A stretch of DNA of 64,000 bases, taken from an uncultured Actinomycetota bacterium (lineage in GTDB: Bacteria; Actinomycetota; Actinomycetes; CAVWCF01). This document shows positions 50,315 to 60,081 of this stretch, piece by piece. The notes under the pieces were generated by a model that had not been told where the DNA came from, ran no database searches, and worked only from the letters and a program-made list of their open reading frames with translations. Position numbers and translations under genes: made by a program. Within the stretch, counting starts at the first letter, position 1, and each line of letters begins with the position of its first letter. Location of the stretch: contig CAVWCF010000001.1 in NCBI GenBank assembly GCA_963753435.1, positions 448,001-512,000 on the forward strand, given 5' to 3'.

Positions 50315-51178
50315 CTAGAAGACCCGGGTCAACGCGACCCGCGAAAAGGCGACGGCGCGACCGCCGCCGTCCACCACGCCACGGACCGGCGCCACATCGA
50401 AGTAGTCCCGACCGGTCCCGACGCGGACGTGCTGGGCCCCGACCGGACGACCGTTCGTCGGGTCCAGGTCAACCCAGTCGCCAAGCCAGGCCTGCACCCA
50501 GGCGTGGCTCTCCCCGATCACCGCCTCGCCGATCGCGGGTTCAGCCTGCGGGTGCAGGTAGCCGGACACGTAGCGGGCCGGGATGCCCAACTCCCGCAGC
50601 AGGGCCAGGCCCACGTGCGCGAAGTCCTGGCACACCCCCATCCCCGCCTTCAGCGCCTCCAGGCCCGTCGTGTGCACCTCGGTGACACCCGGTTCGTAGG
50701 CCAGTTCCTCGCGAATCCAGTCCGACGCCGCCTGCACTGCTTCCGCGGGCGCCAGTTCCCTCCGGAAACCTTCGGCAACTCCGGAAAGGCGGCCGTCCAC
50801 GGACGTGTACTTCGTCAGCGTCAGGTACTCCAGGAAGTTGCGACGCAGGTCTGGCTCGCTCAGGTCGGCCCAGTCGATCACCGCGCTCGGTCCGGGCCGA
50901 TCCGGGCTGGCCTCGACCAGCGCGGAGTTCGTGATCGTGAGCACCGTGTGCGGTGCGGTGATCTCGACCACGTGGACGGTAGAGCCGAAATAGTCGGTGT
51001 ACTCGCGGACCCATGCGACCGGATCGACGGTGAGCCGCGAATCCAGGACCGTCTGCCCGACACCGGCCTTGGGCGTCATCCGCAACTCGTTGTAGGAGGA
51101 GGAGACCTGCGACTCGTACTGGAACACCGTCTCGTGACGGATCGACAAACGACTGATGCCCGAGCCCACGTTGCTCAT
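50315..51178 (-). CDS. Transglutaminase-like protein with Bact_transglu_N domain
   Basis: IRHET.F.Y, GVCQDFAH, ARYVSGY, SHAW and DPTN (Cys-His-Asp triad). Confidence 0.92.
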   Translation of the reverse strand: MSNVGSGISRLSIRHETVFQYESQVSSSYNELRMTPKAGVGQTVLDSRLTVDPVAWVREYTDYFGSTVHVVEITAPHTVLTITNSALVEASPDRPGPSAVIDWADLSEPDLRRNFLEYLTLTKYTSVDGRLSGVAEGFRRELAPAEAVQAASDWIREELAYEPGVTEVHTTGLEALKAGMGVCQDFAHVGLALLRELGIPARYVSGYLHPQAEPAIGEAVIGESHAWVQAWLGDWVDLDPTNGRPVGAQHVRVGTGRDYFDVAPVRGVVDGGGRAVAFSRVALTRVF

Positions 51179-52107
51179 GCCTGTGCCTCCGCGGACCATC
51201 GCACCGGGGCGATCTGCCGGAAGAACCGGTTGGCGATTGCCTCGTGGGTGTCCCCCAGGGACTGCTGCAGTTCCTCAAGCACTTTCAGCACCGAACCGGC
51301 ACCCGGGGACAGCACCGAGTAGGCGATCCGCGCCCGGGCCGCACCCAGAACACGGCTCGCCTCGCCGCCCATGCCGATGCGGCTTTCGGCCGGCTCCAAC
51401 TCACTCAGCACCTCGCCGGCCCTGTCGACGGTGTGCAGTAGCGACCGCGGGAACAGGCGATCGGACATCAGGAACTCCGCCACCTCAGCGCTGTCCAGGT
51501 GCCCGCGGTAGGCACGCAAGTAGGCCTCGTGCCCGCCGCAGGAGCGCAGCAACAGCGCCAGATCGGTTCGCTGGCTCTGTTGGGCGGCGAGCAGCCTGGC
51601 GGTCATGTCCGCGCGTTCCAGGCTGCGGCCCAGTACCAGGAACCGCCAACCGTCGTCGCGGCTCATGGTCGCCTCGATGTGGCCGCCGACAAGTGCGCTG
51701 CGCGTACGGATGAAGGCGAGGAACGAGTCCGGGCCGCTCACTCGGGCCTGGGCGCGTTGGGAGGGCAGCCGCAGATGGGTCGCGTTGATGACCTCCCACA
51801 CTTCACCGGAGATCGCCTCGCGCACACCGCGGGCGTTGTCGCGCGCGTTCCTGGCACTGGCCATGATGGAACTCGGTTGAGTCTCGTCATATGCGAGCAG
51901 TTCGAGTACGTCAGCTGCCTGCAACTGCCGGGCGGGCACGTCCACGCCCATCACCTTGAGCAATCGACGGCTCGCGCGGTCCACGCCGCGCTGCCCGAGG
52001 CCGTAGAAGGACCCGTGCACGTGCGCGTCGAGGATCCGGGCGGTGCCATCAGCCCGCTCGACGTGGCGGCCGATCCAGTAGAGGGACTCCGCCATTCGGC
52101 TCAGCAT
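51175..52107 (-). CDS. Alpha-E domain protein (DUF403)
   Basis: MLSRMAESLYWIGRHVERA, ARDNAR, GRSLERAD and FPRS. Confidence 0.92.
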   Translation of the reverse strand: MLSRMAESLYWIGRHVERADGTARILDAHVHGSFYGLGQRGVDRASRRLLKVMGVDVPARQLQAADVLELLAYDETQPSSIMASARNARDNARGVREAISGEVWEVINATHLRLPSQRAQARVSGPDSFLAFIRTRSALVGGHIEATMSRDDGWRFLVLGRSLERADMTARLLAAQQSQRTDLALLLRSCGGHEAYLRAYRGHLDSAEVAEFLMSDRLFPRSLLHTVDRAGEVLSELEPAESRIGMGGEASRVLGAARARIAYSVLSPGAGSVLKVLEELQQSLGDTHEAIANRFFRQIAPVRWSAEAQA

Positions 52108-53756
52108 GGGGACCACCCTGCTGGCCGGCCCTGCTGTTGCTGCATCTGCTGCTGCTGGGAGTCGGTGTTGTCGCTCGGTCCGGTGACCGGCGCCGGCCGG
52201 TAGTCGATGTCGTCCGCTGCCAGGAGCGCCGCATCGGCCGCTTCATCATCGACGTGACCTTCGGCGGCCGGCTCGACCGCCAGCGTCCAGGTGTCCTTGC
52301 TGCCGCCGCCTTGGCTGGAGTTGACGACCAGGGACCCCTCCCGCATGGCCACCCGGGTCAGCCCGCCGGGCAGCACCCAGATCTCGTGACCGTCGTTGAT
52401 CGCGAACGGGCGCAGATCGATGTGGCGAGGCGCCAGGTTGCCGTCGATGAGTGTCGGCGCCGTGGACAGCATGACGACCGGCTGCGCAATCCAGTCCCGT
52501 GGCGATTCGAGGATCTGCAGGCGCAGCCGGTCAAGTTCCTCCTTGGTCGCCGTCGTTCCGATGACCAACCCGTGACCACCGGAAGCACCGGTCGGCTTGA
52601 TGACAAGTTCATCCAGCCGGGACAGGGCCTCGGCCCGCTGGTCGGCCTCGGCCAACCGGTACGTCTGCACGTTGTCGAGGATCGGCTTCTCGCCGAGGTA
52701 GTACTCGATCAAGTCCGGGACGTAGGTGTAGATGAGCTTGTCGTCTGCCACGCCGTTGCCGACGGCATTGGCCAAGGTGACGCTGCCGAAACGCGCTGCA
52801 TTGAGCAGGCCCGGGACGCCGAGCATGGAGTCGGCATGAAACTGCATCGGGTCCAGGTAGGCGTCATCGACACGGCGGTAGATGGTGTCGACTCGCCGCT
52901 CCCCCTCGGTCGTGCGCATGTACACGTAGCCGCCGCGAACTCGCAGATCCCGCCCTTCGACCAGTTCCACGCCCATCGCCCGAGCCAACAGGGTGTGCTC
53001 GACGTAAGCGGAGTTGTGCACGCCCGGGGTCAGCACGACCACGTTCGGCTCGTCGACTGCCGGTGCAGTCGAACGCAGTGCCGCGAGCAGGCGGGCCGGG
53101 TACTCATCGACGGGCTGGAGGGGTAGATGGCCGACCAGTTCGGGGAAGGCACGCGCCATCGCTTGCCGGTTCTCGATGACGTAGGACACCCCCGAGGGCA
53201 CGCGCACGTTGTCCTCAAGGACCCGGAACCGTCCTTCCGCATCGCGGATCAGGTCCGGTCCGGCTACGTGGATGCGTGCACCCCGCACCGGCGCGATGCC
53301 GTGGGCGGCCCGGTGGAAGTGCGGACAACTGAGCACGGCGGACCGGGGAACGATCCCCTCCTTGAGGACCTCCCCCTCCCCGTAGACGTCCGATAGGAAC
53401 ATCTCCAAGGCCCGCACCCGTTGGGCCACGCCGGCTTCTACCTCTAGCCACTCCGCGGTGGACAGCACCCGCGGGACCGGATCCAGCGGGAACGGCCGCT
53501 CCTCACCGGACAGGGAGAAGGTCACCCCTCGGTCGTGATAGGCGCTGGCCAGTGACCGCGCGCGCCGGCGCACCTCCTCTTCGCTGAGGCTGGCCAAGGC
53601 CGCAAGGACACCCTCCACCGTGGGCCGCGCGGAGCCTTCGGCGTTGATCGCCTCATCCCACGGTCGGGTCGCCGCAGGCGCGCCCGGCACGGAGTAGGCC
53701 AGGGCGGCGCTGCGGTAGGCGTCGACGAGACCGAGGTCGGGACCGGATTCGGTCAC
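52101..53756 (-). CDS. Circularly permuted type 2 ATP-grasp protein
   Basis: PLDPVPR, EDNVRVPSGVSY, NSAY.EH, IYRRVDD, GVADDK, GGLTRVA and NSSQGGGSKDTW; poly-Q tail. Confidence 0.93.
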   Translation of the reverse strand: MTESGPDLGLVDAYRSAALAYSVPGAPAATRPWDEAINAEGSARPTVEGVLAALASLSEEEVRRRARSLASAYHDRGVTFSLSGEERPFPLDPVPRVLSTAEWLEVEAGVAQRVRALEMFLSDVYGEGEVLKEGIVPRSAVLSCPHFHRAAHGIAPVRGARIHVAGPDLIRDAEGRFRVLEDNVRVPSGVSYVIENRQAMARAFPELVGHLPLQPVDEYPARLLAALRSTAPAVDEPNVVVLTPGVHNSAYVEHTLLARAMGVELVEGRDLRVRGGYVYMRTTEGERRVDTIYRRVDDAYLDPMQFHADSMLGVPGLLNAARFGSVTLANAVGNGVADDKLIYTYVPDLIEYYLGEKPILDNVQTYRLAEADQRAEALSRLDELVIKPTGASGGHGLVIGTTATKEELDRLRLQILESPRDWIAQPVVMLSTAPTLIDGNLAPRHIDLRPFAINDGHEIWVLPGGLTRVAMREGSLVVNSSQGGGSKDTWTLAVEPAAEGHVDDEAADAALLAADDIDYRPAPVTGPSDNTDSQQQQMQQQQGRPAGWSPC

Positions 53757-53813
53757 TCGCTGCCTCCCCGGCTGTCGGCTGATCAAGACGCTGAGCAGAT
53801 TAGCGGGGCAGAG

Positions 53814-53856
53814 GGGACGAAGGACTCCCGCGCGGGGCCGGGTCCGACGCAACGAT
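53814..53856 (+). promoter_or_regulatory. Possible DevR/DosR-type boxes and -10 element upstream of nifJ
   Basis: GGGAC-GAAG-GACTC at 53814 and a GGGCC half-site 21 bp later, followed by AACGAT. Confidence 0.35.
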
Positions 53857-53859
53857 GAG

Positions 53860-56800
53860 ATGGTGACCAGTGCCACGGTGGCGACCACCGTTCCCACAAC
53901 TGTCCCTCAAGAGCCCGGCTGGGCCGTCCTCGACGGCAACGAGGCGGCAGCGTCGGTTGCCTACGCGCTGTCAGACGTTGTTGCCATCTATCCGATAACG
54001 CCGGCTTCGCCCATGGGCGAGTTCGCCGACTCGTGGTCGGGCGCGGGAAAGCCGAATCTCTTCGGCGCGGTTCCCGACGTCATCGAGATGCAGTCCGAGG
54101 CAGGAGCTGCGGGTGCCTTGCACGGCGCTGCGACGACGGGCGCGTTGGCGACCACCTTCACCGCCTCCCAGGGCTTGCTGCTCATGCTGCCGAACATGTT
54201 CAAGTTGGCCGGCGAACTCACACCGGCAGTGATTCACGTCGCCGCGCGCACTGTGGCCACGCACGCCCTGAGCATCTTCGGCGATCACAGCGACGTGATG
54301 GCTGCCCGGACCACTGGTTGGACCATGCTGGCCTCCGGCAGCGTCCAGGAAGCGCAAGACTTCGCCGCCGTCGCACATGCGGTGAGCCTCAATTCGCGGC
54401 TGCCGGTCCTGCACTTCTTCGATGGTTTTCGCACCTCGCACGAGGTCGCCAAGATTCGCCGACTGGCTGCGGACGACCTGCGGGCGCTGGTTGACGCTGA
54501 CCGGGTCGCCGAGCATCGCGCCCGCGGCCTGACTCCGGACGCCCCGGTTCTGCGCGGCACGGCGCAGAACCCCGACGTCTTCTTCCAGGCCCGGGAGGCG
54601 GCGAACCGCTACCACGACGCCGTCCCCGATGCGGTTGCGTCGGCCTTCACGGCTTTGGCTGAGCGCACGGGGCGGACCTACCAACTGGTCGACTACCACG
54701 GGGCGCCGGACGCTGACCGCGTCATCGTGCTGATGGGCTCGGCGGCCGGGACGGTCGCCGAAGCGGTGGACGCGCTGGTGGCTGGTGGCGAGAAGGTCGG
54801 TGTGGCCACGGTTCGACTCTTCCGGCCCTTCCCCGCTGCGGCGCTGCTGAGCGCGCTGCCCGAAACTGTTCGCGCCGTGGCAGTCCTGGACCGCACCAAG
54901 GAACCGGGCGCCCCCGGTGAACCGCTGTTCCTGGATGTGGCCGCGACGCTGGGGCAAGCAGTGGCAACCGGTCAACGGAGCACGGCGCCGAGAGTCATTG
55001 GTGGCCGATACGGACTGTCCTCAAAGGAATTCACCCCAGCCATGGCAGCGTCCGTGTTCGAGCACGCCAGCGCCGTCCTGGCCGACGGCCTGGACGCCCC
55101 CGGAGCACCGCCGGCGCACGGCTTCACCGTCGGCATCGTCGACGACGTGACCCGCCTTTCGCTGCCCACACACGAACCGCTGCCCAACCTCGCCCCCGTA
55201 CGCACCGCGGTGTTCTACGGCCTCGGTAGCGACGGCACCGTCAGCGCCAACAAGGCCGCGGTGAAGATCCTCGGCGAGAACACCGACCTGCACACGCAGG
55301 GCTACTTCGTTTACGACTCCAAGAAGTCCGGTGCTGTCACCGTCAGCCACCTGCGGATGTCCGAGGACCCGATCCGTTCGGCCTACCTGGTTTCCGGGGC
55401 GGATTTCGTCGCCTGCCATCAGTTCTCCCTGCTGGAGCGAATGGACGTACTCGGCCTGGCGCACCCAGGGGCGACGTTCCTGCTCAACAGCCAGTACGGC
55501 CCGGACGAGGTTTGGGACCACCTGCCAGTTGAGGTGCAACAGGCGATCGTGGACAAGGGGCTGCGGCTGTTCGTGATCGATGCCTACGGCGTATCGGCCG
55601 CCGCCGGACTGCGCCAGCGCATCAACTCCGTGATGATGCCGGCGTTCTTCGCGCTATCAGGAGTGCTGCCCGCGGACGAGGCCCTCGGTCACATCCGGCG
55701 GCACTTCGAGAAGACTTACGCACGCCGCGGCCGCACCGTGGTGGAGCAGAACTTGGCCGCGATCGATGCCGCGCTACAGGCGCTGCACGAGGTCGAAGTG
55801 CCCGGGACGGTCACCTCGCAGATCCGCCGCAGGCGCCCAGTGCCCGAGGACGCACCGGACTTCGTCCAACGCGTCACCGCCCGGATGATCGCCGGTGAGG
55901 GCGACCTGCTGCCGGTCAGCGCGCTGCCCGTGGACGGGTCGTTCCCGACTGCCACCGCGCAATACGAGAAGCGCACGCTGGCGCTGGAGATCCCGATCTG
56001 GGATCCCAGCATCTGCATCGACTGCAACAAGTGCGCCATGGTCTGCCCGCACACCGCTATTCGCGCCAAGGTCGCCGAGCCCGCCGCATTCGACATGCTC
56101 GGGACCGATCTGCCGCGCAAGGACTTCCGGTCCCGCGAACTGCCCGACCGCGCATTGGTGATCCAAGTCGCCCCCGACGATTGCACCGGCTGCGGCATCT
56201 GTGTCGACGTCTGCCCGGCCCGCAGCAAGTCCGAGGCCAAGCACAAGGCGATCAACATGGAGCCGATCGGGGAGCACCTGGACGTGGAACGCGAACGGTT
56301 CGCCGCGTTCCTGGACCTGCCCGAGGCTCCCCGCGACCTGGTCCCGCACGGGACGATCAAGGGCTCCCAATTGCTGCAGCCGCTGTTTGAGTTCTCCGGC
56401 GCCTGCTCCGGATGCGGTGAGACGCCGTATCTGCGGCTGGTCTCGCAGCTGTTCGGCGATCGCGCGATCATCGCCAACGCGACCGGCTGCTCGTCGATCT
56501 ATGGCGGGAACCTGCCGACCACCCCCTGGTCGGTGAACGCCGACGGGCGCGGTCCGGCCTGGTCCAACTCCCTGTTTGAGGACAATGCCGAGTTCGGCCT
56601 GGGGATGCGGCTGGCGCTGGATCAGGCGCAGGCGCTCGCGATCGAGTTGCTGCGGCAGTTGGCTCCCCGCATCGGCGACGACACGGTGACAGCACTGATC
56701 AGCGGCATCGGCGCCCGCGATGACGTCGGGATCGCCGATCAACGAACCCGAGTGGCGGCGCTGAAGCAGCAACTCGGCGCAGTGGACGACAGCGGTCCCG

Positions 56801-57525
56801 ACCACCTGGCCGCACGCACCTTGCTGACCGTGGCTGACGACTTGGTCCACCGCAGCGTGTGGATCGTCGGCGGGGACGGCTGGGCCTACGACATCGGCTT
56901 CTCCGGCCTGGACCACACCTTGGCCGCCGGACGTGACGTCAACCTGCTGGTCCTGGACACGGAGGTCTACTCCAACACCGGGGGCCAGGCGAGCAAGTCC
57001 ACGCCCCGCGCAGCAGTGGCGAAGTTCGCCACCGGCGGCAAGCCAACACCGAAGAAGGACCTCGGGATGATCGCGATGGCCTACGGCACTGCGTATGTCG
57101 CCCAGATCGCATTGGGCGCCAACGACGTGCAGACCTTGCGCTCCCTGCAGGAGGCCGAAGCCTTCCCCGGACCCTCGCTGGTCATCGCGTACTCGACGTG
57201 CATCGCACACGGCATCGACATGAAGACGTCCATGACGCACCAGAAGGACGCCGTGGCAAGCGGCTACTGGCCACTGTTCCGATTCCGGCCGGGTAGCGAC
57301 GAGCACGAACACCCGTTCAGCCTGGACTCCAAGGAGCCGTCGATCCCGTTCAAAGACTTCGCCAAGTCCGAGGCACGGTTCGCAATGCTCGCTCGCACTC
57401 ACCCGGAGGCGGCCGAACACCTTGGCCGCGCCGCCCAGGCCGACATCGACGAACGCTGGCGCTACTACAGCCAACTGGCCGGACTGGAACGCTCGGTTGC
57501 GGCGGATGCGGAGGAAACGGAATGA
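53860..57525 (+). CDS. nifJ: Pyruvate:ferredoxin (flavodoxin) oxidoreductase, single-chain type
   Basis: DGNEA, YPITP, QSEAGAAG, DGFRTSHE, two CxxCxxCxxxCP motifs, GACSGCGE, GGDGWAYDIG and YSNTGGQ. Confidence 0.97.
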   Translation: MVTSATVATTVPTTVPQEPGWAVLDGNEAAASVAYALSDVVAIYPITPASPMGEFADSWSGAGKPNLFGAVPDVIEMQSEAGAAGALHGAATTGALATTFTASQGLLLMLPNMFKLAGELTPAVIHVAARTVATHALSIFGDHSDVMAARTTGWTMLASGSVQEAQDFAAVAHAVSLNSRLPVLHFFDGFRTSHEVAKIRRLAADDLRALVDADRVAEHRARGLTPDAPVLRGTAQNPDVFFQAREAANRYHDAVPDAVASAFTALAERTGRTYQLVDYHGAPDADRVIVLMGSAAGTVAEAVDALVAGGEKVGVATVRLFRPFPAAALLSALPETVRAVAVLDRTKEPGAPGEPLFLDVAATLGQAVATGQRSTAPRVIGGRYGLSSKEFTPAMAASVFEHASAVLADGLDAPGAPPAHGFTVGIVDDVTRLSLPTHEPLPNLAPVRTAVFYGLGSDGTVSANKAAVKILGENTDLHTQGYFVYDSKKSGAVTVSHLRMSEDPIRSAYLVSGADFVACHQFSLLERMDVLGLAHPGATFLLNSQYGPDEVWDHLPVEVQQAIVDKGLRLFVIDAYGVSAAAGLRQRINSVMMPAFFALSGVLPADEALGHIRRHFEKTYARRGRTVVEQNLAAIDAALQALHEVEVPGTVTSQIRRRRPVPEDAPDFVQRVTARMIAGEGDLLPVSALPVDGSFPTATAQYEKRTLALEIPIWDPSICIDCNKCAMVCPHTAIRAKVAEPAAFDMLGTDLPRKDFRSRELPDRALVIQVAPDDCTGCGICVDVCPARSKSEAKHKAINMEPIGEHLDVERERFAAFLDLPEAPRDLVPHGTIKGSQLLQPLFEFSGACSGCGETPYLRLVSQLFGDRAIIANATGCSSIYGGNLPTTPWSVNADGRGPAWSNSLFEDNAEFGLGMRLALDQAQALAIELLRQLAPRIGDDTVTALISGIGARDDVGIADQRTRVAALKQQLGAVDDSGPDHLAARTLLTVADDLVHRSVWIVGGDGWAYDIGFSGLDHTLAAGRDVNLLVLDTEVYSNTGGQASKSTPRAAVAKFATGGKPTPKKDLGMIAMAYGTAYVAQIALGANDVQTLRSLQEAEAFPGPSLVIAYSTCIAHGIDMKTSMTHQKDAVASGYWPLFRFRPGSDEHEHPFSLDSKEPSIPFKDFAKSEARFAMLARTHPEAAEHLGRAAQADIDERWRYYSQLAGLERSVAADAEETE

Positions 57526-58517
57526 GCGTCGACCTGACCGTCACCTACCTGGGGATGCAACTGCATTCCCCGCTCGTCGCCTCGGCCGGTCCGCACACCC
57601 GCAGCCTGGACAACCTGCGGCGCCTGGAGGACGCCGGCATCGGGGCCGTGGTGCTGCCCTCCCTCTTCGAGGAGCAACTGATCGCGGAGTCGACACAGGT
57701 CGACGCACTGGTGGGCGACTTGGGTGCCGGCTTCGCGGAGACCAGTGGCTTCTACTCCGAGGATGTCGCGTTCGCGACGGGACCAGATGAGTACTTGGAG
57801 TTGTTGGCCGGCGCCAAGGCGGCCTTGAGCGTCCCCGTGGTCGCCAGTCTCAACGGCATCAGCGCTTCCGGGTGGACTCACTACGCCTCGCTGCTGCAGG
57901 AGGCCGGAGCCGACGCGCTGGAACTCAACGAGTACCGAATTGCGGCGGACCCGGACCGCTCCGCCGCCGACGTGGAGGCGGAGGTGCTCGACGTGATCGA
58001 GCAGGTCCGACAGGCCGTGAGCATTCCGATCGCGGTCAAACTGGGCCCCTACTTCACGTCCCTGCCGCATCTGGTGCGCCGCATCGAGAAGTCCGGGGCC
58101 AGTGGGCTGGTGCTGTTCAACCGCTTCTACCAGCCCGATTTGGATTTGGAGTCACTGCGCGCGACACCGGCCCTGGTGTTGTCCACCTCGGCTGATCTGC
58201 GCCTGCCACTGCGCTGGATCGGGCTGCTGCGCCACCTCACCGACCTGAGCCTGGCGTTGTCATCCGGAGTGCACACGGCCGAGGACGCGATCAAGTCGAT
58301 CCTGGTCGGCGCAGACGCGGTGATGATGACGTCGGCCTTGCTGCACCACGGCGCCGAGCACGTCACAACCGTGCAGGCAGGCATGCAGGCCTGGTTCGAC
58401 GAGCACGAGTACGAGTCGGTTGACCAGGCCCGCGGTTCGGCCGCTTGGGCGACCGGGCCGGACCCCACCGCCTTCGAAAGAGCCAACTACCTGACCGTCC
58501 TGACCAGCTACGTGTGA
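57522..58517 (+). CDS. Dihydroorotate-dehydrogenase-like flavoprotein (NifJ-associated type)
   Basis: YLG..L.SPLVAS, SLFEEQ, KLGP and LFNRFYQPD; ELNEY replaces ELNxSCPN; ATGA overlap with nifJ. Confidence 0.88.
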   Translation: MSVDLTVTYLGMQLHSPLVASAGPHTRSLDNLRRLEDAGIGAVVLPSLFEEQLIAESTQVDALVGDLGAGFAETSGFYSEDVAFATGPDEYLELLAGAKAALSVPVVASLNGISASGWTHYASLLQEAGADALELNEYRIAADPDRSAADVEAEVLDVIEQVRQAVSIPIAVKLGPYFTSLPHLVRRIEKSGASGLVLFNRFYQPDLDLESLRATPALVLSTSADLRLPLRWIGLLRHLTDLSLALSSGVHTAEDAIKSILVGADAVMMTSALLHHGAEHVTTVQAGMQAWFDEHEYESVDQARGSAAWATGPDPTAFERANYLTVLTSYV

Positions 58518-58529
58518 TCGGAGGAGCCG

Positions 58530-59414
58530 ATGAGCCGACTGAATGAAGTTAGGGAGCCGCTGGAGCGGTTCCGTAGCGCCTTCGCAGAGCACCTTCCGGC
58601 CGCGGACCGATTGGACTTCAACGTCGACCGGCTGACTCCCGAGGGGCGGACCTATCTGCGTGCGGAGACCTACGCAACGCCCACCTTGTCCCGGCTGGTT
58701 ATGGAGGAGTACCTGATCGGTAGCCGCATGCACGGCACGGTGATCATGGCCTTCGGCCAGCCGACCAGCGAGCAGCCGATCTTCTTCTACCAGCTCGGCG
58801 GGGTGGGCGACCGTTCGATCGCAGTGCTGGACATCAGCCCCGTCACTGCCGACCTTGATCTGTCCGCACTCGCGCCGGTGCACGCGCACTACGCCGAAGC
58901 GCTGGGCCTGACCGAGACCGCAACCGGATGGCTGCAAACCATCTGCTCGCCGTACTTGCTGCACTGCAACTACGCGGAGTTGGACGAGGAACTGTTCATC
59001 GAGGCCATGGCGGCCTACTTGGACGTCTGGATGACGCATTTTCACGGCGCGGAACTGCCCACAGGCTCCGATGCCCGCACCGAGCAGGTGACCAACGCGC
59101 TGTACAAGTTCAAGTTCCAGCTGCACCACCACGACCCGGCGTACGGGTTCTTCGCCAGGGCCTGGGGCAAGCCCGCCGCGGACGCATTCATCGACATCGA
59201 ATGCGGGGACCATCCCGCCTACCTGCCGCCGGTTTCCCTCGACGAGCATGTGAAGGTCTGGCACAACGACGAACTCAACGTCGTGTGGACCGAGGCCGCC
59301 CAGCAGGTGGTCGAAGCGGCGCCGGATGCCGACGCACGCCGGGAGCAGGTGGAGGCCGCTGCTGCTGAGGCTGGCTTCGGCATCGTCACCGCCGAACTGC
59401 TGGATCGCTTCTGA
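58530..59414 (+). CDS. Ferredoxin-dependent bilin reductase (FDBR)-fold protein with C-terminal PCP_red-like domain
   Basis: Manual alignment to recalled PcyA/PebA motifs: YATPTLSRLVME, FGQP..EQPIFFYQL..AVLDISP, WLQTICSPY, HDPAYGFFARAWG; tail VWTEAAQQVVEAAP..REQVEAAAAEAGFGIVTAELL; SD GGAGG. Confidence 0.7.
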   Translation: MSRLNEVREPLERFRSAFAEHLPAADRLDFNVDRLTPEGRTYLRAETYATPTLSRLVMEEYLIGSRMHGTVIMAFGQPTSEQPIFFYQLGGVGDRSIAVLDISPVTADLDLSALAPVHAHYAEALGLTETATGWLQTICSPYLLHCNYAELDEELFIEAMAAYLDVWMTHFHGAELPTGSDARTEQVTNALYKFKFQLHHHDPAYGFFARAWGKPAADAFIDIECGDHPAYLPPVSLDEHVKVWHNDELNVVWTEAAQQVVEAAPDADARREQVEAAAAEAGFGIVTAELLDRF

Positions 59415-59433: not shown

Positions 59434-60081
59434 TCAGTTGTTCGATCCGACCAGCACAGCGGGAACGTCAATTCCCAACTCCCCCGCCGCCTCAACTACT
59501 GCCGGCGGCAACGGATCGAAACGGGCGCCTTTGGTCTTCGCGGTCATGGCCGCATGGATAGCGGCACGGATCGAATCCTCAACCAATCCGCGAGTCCGTT
59601 CGGCTTCAGCCGGTCCGGCCCAGGTTTCGATCCGCCAACGTTCCACCGCCCGCAATGCAATCGACGCCGCCAGCGTCCCCGCGTAGCAGAGCTGAAACGC
59701 CACCAGCCGCGCGAGGCGATGCGCGGCTTCAGCGGAGTCTCGGTCGATCTCCAGGTCGCCGCTACCGGTAACCCAGCCGAGCAACTGGCGAGCGTCGAGT
59801 CGGGTGCCGTCCGGCAGCCGCACAGTTTCCCCTTCCGGGGGGATGAGCATGGCGACGGGCGGCTCACCCAGGACGTCTGCGACTGCGGCCCACTCATCCA
59901 GCGAGAGCCGACGACGCCCCTGTTCGATGTTCGTCACCGCGGTGGCGTTCAGCCCGTAGCCGGCGGCCTCCAGCCGATCCCCCAACTCCCGCGCCGACCA
60001 GCCGCGGGCGCCACGGTGCACCCGCATCCATCTGACGACGGTCTCGCCCAGGTCTGTGCCGGTCTTGGCCTTTGTCGTCAT
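59434..60081 (-). CDS. XRE-family HTH regulator (phage/AICE repressor-like)
   Basis: R..RGWSARELGDRL...TAVTNIEQGRRRLSLDE..A.A.VLG.PP..ML.P. Confidence 0.82.
   Translation of the reverse strand: MTTKAKTGTDLGETVVRWMRVHRGARGWSARELGDRLEAAGYGLNATAVTNIEQGRRRLSLDEWAAVADVLGEPPVAMLIPPEGETVRLPDGTRLDARQLLGWVTGSGDLEIDRDSAEAAHRLARLVAFQLCYAGTLAASIALRAVERWRIETWAGPAEAERTRGLVEDSIRAAIHAAMTAKTKGARFDPLPPAVVEAAGELGIDVPAVLVGSNN

Follow-up and report, generated by a model that had tools for sequence, protein, structure and literature searches.

An apparently undescribed bacterial lineage of FDBR-fold proteins with a C-terminal PCP_red domain and a distinctive set of pocket residues

The stretch analysed here (the window) comprises 64,000 nucleotides of contig CAVWCF010000001.1 from an uncultured Actinomycetota bacterium, the genome of which is labelled G000 (contigs C1 and C5). 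Related genomes carry G-numbers, their loci carry L-numbers, and positions refer to the whole stretch unless a contig or locus is named. At 58530..59414, on the forward strand, lies a gene encoding a 294-residue protein with the fold of ferredoxin-dependent bilin reductases (FDBRs), as judged from the open reading frame (ORF), its translation, profile matches and a structural model. The FDBR alpha/beta/alpha domain occupies residues 1–229 (58530..59216, forward strand). It is followed by a PCP_red domain (residues 248–294; 59271..59411, forward strand), which resembles the C-terminus of BchB/ChlB, a subunit of the dark-operative protochlorophyllide reductase (DPOR). A first-pass annotation of the same DNA had ended the feature at 59210, which suits the end of the reductase domain; the gene runs for 67 more codons to 59414.

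The peptides quoted in that annotation are all found in the translation, and its assignment to the FDBR superfamily holds. The protein matches Pfam family PF05996 (Fe_bilin_red) at E 7.9e-18, with 65.4 bits compared with a cut-off of 31. The AlphaFold2 model, built on an alignment of 45 sequences (pLDDT 93.5, pTM 0.92), is an alpha/beta/alpha sandwich with two distal helices above the sheet. Foldseek aligns this model with PcyA at E 3.5e-10, and VIA-align gives Z-scores of 20–23 against six entries for FDBRs and for red chlorophyll catabolite reductase (RCCR), residues 2–232 being aligned to PebB, PcyA and PebA. PebB (PDB 6qwq; 23.3), PcyA (2d1e, 2g18; 23.1), HY2 (6kmd/6kme; 22.7) and PebA (2x9o; 22.7) are tied, PebS (2vck) scores 18.6 and plant RCCR (2zxk, 3aga) 20.4. 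Coproporphyrinogen oxidases follow at 12–16.5, and the next unrelated entry is at 6.1.

Profiles specific to the known enzymes did not claim the protein. The NCBIfam equivalog profile of PcyA scores 22.8 bits against a cut-off of 206, that of PebA 22.7 bits against 263, and neither the PebB profile nor the RCCR profile PF06405 matches at E 1. Among solved structures, the best profile match is tomato HY2 (E 2e-5). In profile comparisons, two uncharacterised bacterial groups are nearest (99%), followed by PebB, PebA and PcyA (97%), and the probability obtained with bacterial RCCR-like groups is only 34–50%. The closest clusters in the ESM Atlas are generic FDBR and RCCR clusters, with a low recognition score. 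The central acid is retained in twelve further uncharacterised groups of bacterial FDBR-like proteins (P0077, P0079, P0080, P0082, P0083, P0085, P0087, P0088, P0092, P0103, P0104 and P0107); in P0085, an N-terminal ferredoxin-like cysteine domain is fused to the FDBR-like domain.

A phmmer search of PDB sequences aligned residues 40–89 without gaps with residues 57–106 of Synechocystis PcyA. V57, E59, V71 and Q88 correspond in this alignment to H74, E76, H88 and D105 of PcyA, and S96, D101 and W134 to S114, D119 and W154. D202 corresponds to D220 of PcyA and to the Asp of the PebA motif RDPAHGLF (chain position 213; D205 if the tag has 8 residues, as the chain length suggests). The same columns were obtained when the protein was separately aligned in MAFFT with 12 PcyA, PebA, PebB and PebS sequences (plasmids, phages) of named or profile-assigned identity, in agreement with the gapless placement of E59, V71 and Q88 proposed in the first-pass annotation. 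That annotation was also right that D202 is retained at the distal Asp position. Its label of a PebA/PebB-type residue does not stand, as cyanobacterial PcyA has this Asp too.

The pocket positions are strictly conserved within the family. E59 (58704..58706), the predicted sheet-side proton donor, is Glu in 45 of 45 aligned sequences and in four of five deep members, which are 21–27% identical. V71 (58740..58742), at the position of PcyA H88 and of the sheet Asp of plant HY2, is Val in all 45 sequences and in all five deep members. Q88 (58791..58793), at the central Asp position, which is Asn in tomato HY2, is Gln in 45/45 and in four of the five. The distal helix and loop residues K195-L198-H199-D202 lie at 59112..59135, all of these sites being on the forward strand; D202 is the distal Asp of PebB, PebS and HY2, and the Arg that PebB and HY2 require four residues before it is replaced by L198 in 45/45. 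Five deep members keep K195 and four keep D202, the fifth ending early. Invariant in all 45 sequences are E59, E60, Y61, G69, V71, Q88, G90, Y148, K195, L198, H199, D202 and Y205. The same residues are invariant wherever covered among 64 distinct sequences from 70 loci (60–61 of 64, the remainder ending short there). Since E60 varies among the deep members, as does H199, and E59 is kept in four of them, E59 rather than E60 is taken as the pocket residue. The pocket positions accordingly include two invariant carboxylates, E59 of the sheet and D202 of the distal loop, alongside K195, H199, Y61 and Y148. H68, which had been suggested for mutagenesis, is a poor target, being His in only 12 of 45 homologues.

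The combination of Glu, Val, Gln, Leu and Asp at these five positions matches no FDBR lineage in the literature compared. HY2 shares the central amide and the distal-loop Asp, in addition to the fold and the best profile match, but has an Asp at position 71 and an Arg at position 198; the sheet acid here is E59. PcyA shares the gapless hairpin, the Glu of E76 and the Asp of D220, whereas its H74, H88 and D105 are replaced by Val, Val and Gln. The distal DP motif is common to PebA, PebS and PebB, of which neither the central Asp nor the PebB Arg is found here. In plant RCCR, which acts with pheophorbide a oxygenase (PaO) and shares the proposed substrate class, the central residue is Glu instead of Gln. 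Pre-PcyA lineages 1–3 are likewise FDBR-like proteins of non-phototrophic bacteria, known mostly from metagenome-assembled genomes (MAGs), with altered catalytic positions. In contrast to the present family, they are described in the accessible portions of PMC10151467 and PMC13446030 as having Asp or Glu at position 105 and no conserved Glu76, and as clustering with heme oxygenase, V4R, Fe-S and globin genes, or with a B12-binding protein and a globin. No such cluster was found among the neighbours scanned, a selection of 82 + 91 proteins rather than every ORF.

Loss of the central acid does not imply loss of activity. In HY2 of vascular plants, the central residue is Asn, and a different Asp takes over the role of the central one (PMC6755814). 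The pre-1 variant E91Q, with Gln at exactly this position, is reported to reduce biliverdin to 3Z-phytochromobilin, and the pre-2 variant D91N still reduces biliverdin (PMC13446030). KflaHY2 D122N also yields some phytochromobilin, while D242N is dead (bioRxiv 2022.08.22.504806).

The tail was missed in the first-pass annotation. In this protein, the PF08369 match (residues 253–293) reaches 15.2 bits, below the cut-off of 32.5; in four deep members, it reaches 41.5–51.6 bits, above it. Residues 248–294 superpose on the BchB PCP_red domain (2kru) with a middling Z of 6.7 and a root-mean-square deviation of 1.4 over 47 residues, and the three-helix domain and the W..EA motif of PCP_red are found in the tail. 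Across the 70 loci, the tail is present in 43, absent in 22 and cut in 5. As deep members have PCP_red and 22 of 70 loci end without it, the tail is an ancient feature of the family that members can do without. A second PCP_red tail occurs elsewhere in the host genome (G000:C1:1302701-1305212; L150:6701-9212), where a protein combining an NAD(P)-binding and an RCCR-like domain precedes a flavin-reductase-like protein that bears the tail. This occurrence beside another RCCR-like gene suggests that PCP_red may be a docking module for such reductases. We found no description of an FDBR with a PCP_red tail in the open-access literature.

Searches recovered 44 homologues with 41–93% identity; the deeper members, at about 21–27%, came from a profile search covering 1.84 billion representatives. 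The hosts are 27 gammaproteobacterial MAGs and one actinobacterial MAG. A WhiB-like gene, assigned by eye, and DUF4191 in the genome of the window fit its placement in Actinomycetota. In a maximum-likelihood tree of 49 rows, 12 family rows form one clade with 100/100 support. PcyA, PebA, PebS and PebB form another (92/84, not starred), and the family falls outside it, among uncharacterised bacterial FDBR-like and RCCR-like rows. Pre-PcyA, HY2, PUBS and plant RCCR sequences were not part of this tree. This clade, lying outside the characterised lineages in the tree, and the invariant E/V/Q/D set support the proposal of a new FDBR lineage differing in substrate or regiospecificity. We found no description of the residue set in the open-access literature, although an undesignated member may be present among the outgroup rows of published FDBR trees. 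The lineage therefore appears to be undescribed, and its place in a chlorophyll-breakdown pathway also appears not to be in print.

The gene is rare among relatives of its host. It is absent from 58 other genomes of the host's class and from 400 genomes of a phylum-wide sample, which yielded no extra independent case of co-occurrence. Within the host's family, G001 has one intact and one frameshifted copy and G002 a broken copy (L034/L079, L033/L080); the gene is being lost or moved there. Seven runs contain near-identical DNA (share >=0.2); they come from three studies with the labels sediment, freshwater sediment or soil, and the source may be among them.

Three genes on one strand are arranged in the order pyruvate:ferredoxin oxidoreductase (PFOR; 53860..57525, forward strand; TIGR02176, 1614 bits), dihydroorotate dehydrogenase-like flavoprotein (57522..58517, forward strand; NF005741, 409 bits, cut-off 303) and reductase. 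A 12-nt gap separates the last two and contains a ribosome-binding site, GGAGGAG (58520..58526, forward strand), read from the sequence. PFOR is a possible source of reduced ferredoxin, and contig C5 carries a ferredoxin gene which, from its cysteine pattern, we take to be of the FdxA type. A PFOR operon as a trait of the family is ruled out: G001 and G002 hold the PFOR–dihydroorotate dehydrogenase-like pair, and the reductase gene is not behind it. In other loci, PFOR is a divergent neighbour (L038/L039) or lies 5.5 kb away (L004), and in L017 genes for 2-oxoacid oxidoreductase subunits converge on the reductase gene. Contigs of four RNA libraries match parts of the reductase gene with 96–99% identity, and two span the junction with the upstream gene. 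They also cover the opposite-strand downstream gene, and DNA carry-over is possible, so transcription is only putative. A scan for promoters and terminators at the reductase gene gave nothing above chance.

A second line of evidence not anticipated in the first-pass annotation is the genomic link to RCCR-like and Rieske oxygenase genes. RCCR-like genes matching PF06405, which are distinct from the family itself, occur in 26 of 28 GTDB carriers of the reductase gene, and in G000, G001 and G002. They occur in 2 of 58 other genomes of the host's class and in none of 299 others in a gammaproteobacterial class-wide sample (one genome unscored). This last control overstated the co-occurrence, and order- and family-wide samples corrected it. 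In an order-wide sample of 151 genomes, 6 carry the reductase gene, 46 RCCR-like genes and 55 a particular Rieske subfamily, and the three sets are nested: all 6 carriers are RCCR-positive, and all 46 RCCR-positive genomes hold the Rieske subfamily. A member of this subfamily lies within about 3 kb of the reductase gene in 8 of 70 loci, in four different arrangements. The distance is 112–489 bp in L041, L056, L058, L062 and L141 and about 3 kb in L003, L004 and L051; in L056/L062, the row continues with an RCCR-like gene. Source records annotate these Rieske proteins simply as ring-hydroxylating dioxygenases. The copy number of this uncharacterised subfamily ranges from 2 to 12 or more in gammaproteobacteria of the group around G063 and G074, which includes genomes of 1.3–1.5 Mb.

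The host genome contains five RCCR-like genes, according to a profile built partly from three of them. Two, of different types, lie with a Rieske oxygenase gene in a cluster at C1:1.564-1.580 Mb, outside the window (L077:3865-20000; C1 about 1563800-1580000). The cluster also includes genes for an alpha/beta hydrolase, a short-chain dehydrogenase/reductase, a nitrilase-family protein, a Dabb protein, two maleate-isomerase-family proteins, aldehyde dehydrogenases, a CoA-transferase, and major facilitator superfamily and ABC transporters. One of its RCCR-like members aligns with Arabidopsis RCCR at E 5e-6. The paired proteins (L077:10333-11142 and L077:7176-7946) differ centrally, with Ala in one (and His at position 71) and Asp in the other, as if, judging from these residues, one were catalytic and the other not, or the two formed a heterodimer. 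Of the other host RCCR-like genes, one stands alone, one is fused to an NAD(P)-binding domain and one follows an oxygenase-like gene. The oxygenase-like protein encoded at C1:808492-810212 (L149:10492-12212) has a VanA_C domain, has no Rieske cluster domain, and overlaps a divergent RCCR-like gene that Pfam misses. Clusters resembling that of L077 occur in L124 and L126 and contain, in addition, HMG-CoA-lyase-like, isochorismatase-family and PEP-mutase-family genes, a content that would suit the breakdown of pyrrole-derived maleimides.

A bacterial pathway of the RCCR type is already in print as a prediction (bioRxiv 10.64898/2026.03.19.712979). The accessible part of this preprint reports gene sets of the "SH-RCCR-type" in heterotrophic Actinomycetota and Pseudomonadota, and the present family resembles them in occurring together with, and sometimes beside, genes for a Rieske oxygenase and RCCR-like proteins. 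Shewanella acanthi is described there as losing chlorophyll and forming pheophytin and some pheophorbide; bilin reductases are not treated in that part of the text, and the main text lacks any word that starts with "bilin", "PCP" or "ferredoxin".

A standard heme oxygenase is an unlikely source of the substrate, as PF01126 is absent from all 35 genomes searched (33 carriers and 2 RCCR-only), in a search whose positive control matched in 3 of 14; IsdG/MhuD, HugZ and ChuS-type heme enzymes were not searched for. Neither the phytochrome PHY domain nor reaction-centre families were found in the five genomes tested. Staygreen likewise matched in 0/5, though no positive control matched either. A phycobiliprotein-globin match was weak in one of the five (G074) and lacking in G000. 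The G074 gene (L148:1498-2553) does not lie beside the reductase gene, and the C-terminal part of its product looks, from a sequence motif, like a B12-binding domain. The substrate is likely to come from broken-down chlorophyll or scavenged bilins rather than from the cell's own heme.

From the fold, the residues, the clade, the tail domain and the gene co-occurrence, which are directly observed, we infer catalysis, and with it a substrate, a bond and an electron donor. In the reading that we favour, with confidence at about the midpoint, the protein would take part in the bacterial breakdown of chlorophyll or bilins, reducing an open-chain tetrapyrrole with two electrons supplied by ferredoxin. 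The substrate would occupy the cleft that the two distal helices form with the central sheet, and would receive two protons, one from D202, aided by K195/H199, and one from E59. Q88 would only position the pyrroles, like the Asn of plant HY2. Single electrons would come from ferredoxin, possibly the FdxA-type protein, which PFOR could reduce. According to bioRxiv 2021.10.07.463469, RCCR acts on the C15=C16 bond of the ring-opened catabolite, which it reduces through protonation and single-electron transfers. In the proposed pathway, ring opening would fall to a Rieske oxygenase and the reduction of C15=C16 to RCCR-like proteins, with the present enzyme performing an accessory step. The first candidate bond is the C18 vinyl of a phyllobilin or scavenged bilin, because, with the other two catalytic residues of PcyA gone, the one retained here is the Glu reported as essential for 18-vinyl reduction (PMC13446030) and because phyllobilins carry a C18 vinyl (PMC4950323); the second is an HY2-like ring reduction. 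The authors of PMC13193486 warn that FDBR regiospecificity is hard to predict from sequence. A more specific proposal is that of a phyllobilin reductase which reduces the C18 vinyl with the PcyA-like Glu after Rieske opening of pheophorbide, draws electrons from PFOR and performs chemistry that plants do not use; in this full form, we regard it as unlikely.

Several observations weigh against the favoured reading. The reductase gene is lacking in 40 of the 46 RCCR-positive genomes of the order-wide sample, so the enzyme does not act at a core step. A single GTDB family accounts for most of the gammaproteobacterial carriers; of its 72 genomes, 62 have RCCR-like genes and only 31 the reductase gene. 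The association within this family is weak (30/31 vs 32/41, Fisher p 0.036, uncorrected for kinship and completeness), and the co-occurrence amounts to about three independent lineages (the gammaproteobacterial family, G525 and the actinobacterial family). No Rieske gene lies within about 3 kb in 62 of 70 loci, of which only 24 extend 3 kb on both sides. The Rieske subfamily is multi-copy, with up to 12 or more copies per genome, shows no match to the Pfam family of PaO, and has as its best solved relatives saxitoxin hydroxylases and demethylases (SxtT, NdmA, DdmC). Ring opening is not shown in the accessible part of bioRxiv 10.64898/2026.03.19.712979. As regards electron supply, PFOR does not precede the reductase gene in G001 or G002, its position being lineage-specific, and the protein is acidic (pI 4.7) with no obvious ferredoxin-docking surface. 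Two of five genomes, neither of them G000, encode the heme oxygenase-like diiron family PF14518. Moreover, the invariance of D202 is no proof of catalysis, because PebA D205 is conserved yet reported to be non-essential (PMC6755814).

Other readings accommodate part of these data. The first-pass annotation had allowed for a bilin-binding non-enzyme, and a non-catalytic protein could serve the RCCR-like/Rieske pathway by holding or passing on phototoxic tetrapyrroles, whether ring-opened or cyclic, with the tail docking a partner. Sheet positions 71 and 88, acids in characterised enzymes, are both neutral here; L198 replaces an Arg required by PebB and HY2 for A-ring reduction (PMC6755814); and pre-3 with neutralised acids gained porphyrin binding (PMC13446030). 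One host RCCR-like type similarly has no acid at position 88. Yet E59, D202 and K195 are retained down to 21–27% identity, beyond what a binder would need, and acid-to-amide variants of three FDBRs are reported to remain active. The binding role is therefore weaker than had been supposed, since a central amide is compatible with catalysis, and we consider it unlikely. It is similarly improbable that the fold was recruited for a non-tetrapyrrole, for instance an N-heterocycle or aromatic compound formed by the expanded set of Rieske oxygenases. The strength of that expansion, the resemblance of these oxygenases to SxtT, NdmA and DdmC, their lack of a match to the PaO Pfam family and a pocket reshaped by G69, V71, Y61 and Y148 would fit such a substrate. 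However, every characterised holder of the fold described in the accessible text of PMC13193486 acts on tetrapyrroles, the tail domain otherwise belongs to protochlorophyllide reductase, and S96, D101 and W134 match PcyA residues.

A biosynthetic role, in which an HY2- or pre-1-like enzyme would convert biliverdin to phytochromobilin or a related biliprotein chromophore, is suggested by the tomato HY2 match with its common central amide and distal Asp, by the product of pre-1 E91Q and by the weak globin match in G074. The absence of PF01126 and of PHY domains from the genomes searched, the lack of a globin match in G000 and of heme oxygenase, V4R or globin families among the neighbours scanned, and the missing sheet Asp and Arg of HY2 make this role quite unlikely. 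Least probable, and in our view very unlikely, is an enzyme for closed-ring tetrapyrroles (pheophorbide or porphyrin) that would, for instance, reduce a vinyl group before ring opening. Coproporphyrinogen oxidase uses the same fold, the tail derives from a subunit of a closed-ring reductase and pre-3 variants are reported to bind porphyrins (PMC13446030), but both structure and sequence are much nearer to the open-chain reductases.

For the dismantling of chlorophyll and bilins by bacteria after ring opening, the accessible part of bioRxiv 10.64898/2026.03.19.712979 covers only the first, partly non-enzymatic steps. If the protein is a phyllobilin C18-vinyl reductase, it would be the first enzyme-level handle on chlorophyll mineralisation by sediment and soil heterotrophs, and a fourth catalytic design on the FDBR fold. 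The family puts to the test the rule that FDBR chemistry depends on an acidic residue in the central sheet position or the one beside it; in the evolutionary account of the fold, it would form an additional branch between the bilin reductases and RCCR. The protein is small and soluble, two of its residues are named as candidate proton donors, and it is suited to the standard anaerobic FDBR assay. Were it a mere binder or a minor accessory, it would still represent an undescribed lineage, of modest interest.

Other gene associations were noted around the family and in the window. The tail-less form in related gammaproteobacteria (L019, L020, L023, L025) lies near F420 biosynthesis genes, namely CofC, CofD, F420 ligase, a CofH-type radical SAM gene and an F420-dependent NADP oxidoreductase. 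We read this link (L019 group), and that to a cytochrome c/heme-copper oxidase block (L008 group), as synteny among kin. An XRE-family helix-turn-helix gene (59434-60081, reverse strand) converges on the reductase gene and opens a stretch of short mixed genes with slightly lower GC (0.64) that reaches the window end. Divergent from PFOR, at 50315-53897 on the reverse strand, are a circularly permuted ATP-grasp gene and, assigned by eye, alpha-E-like and transglutaminase-like genes.

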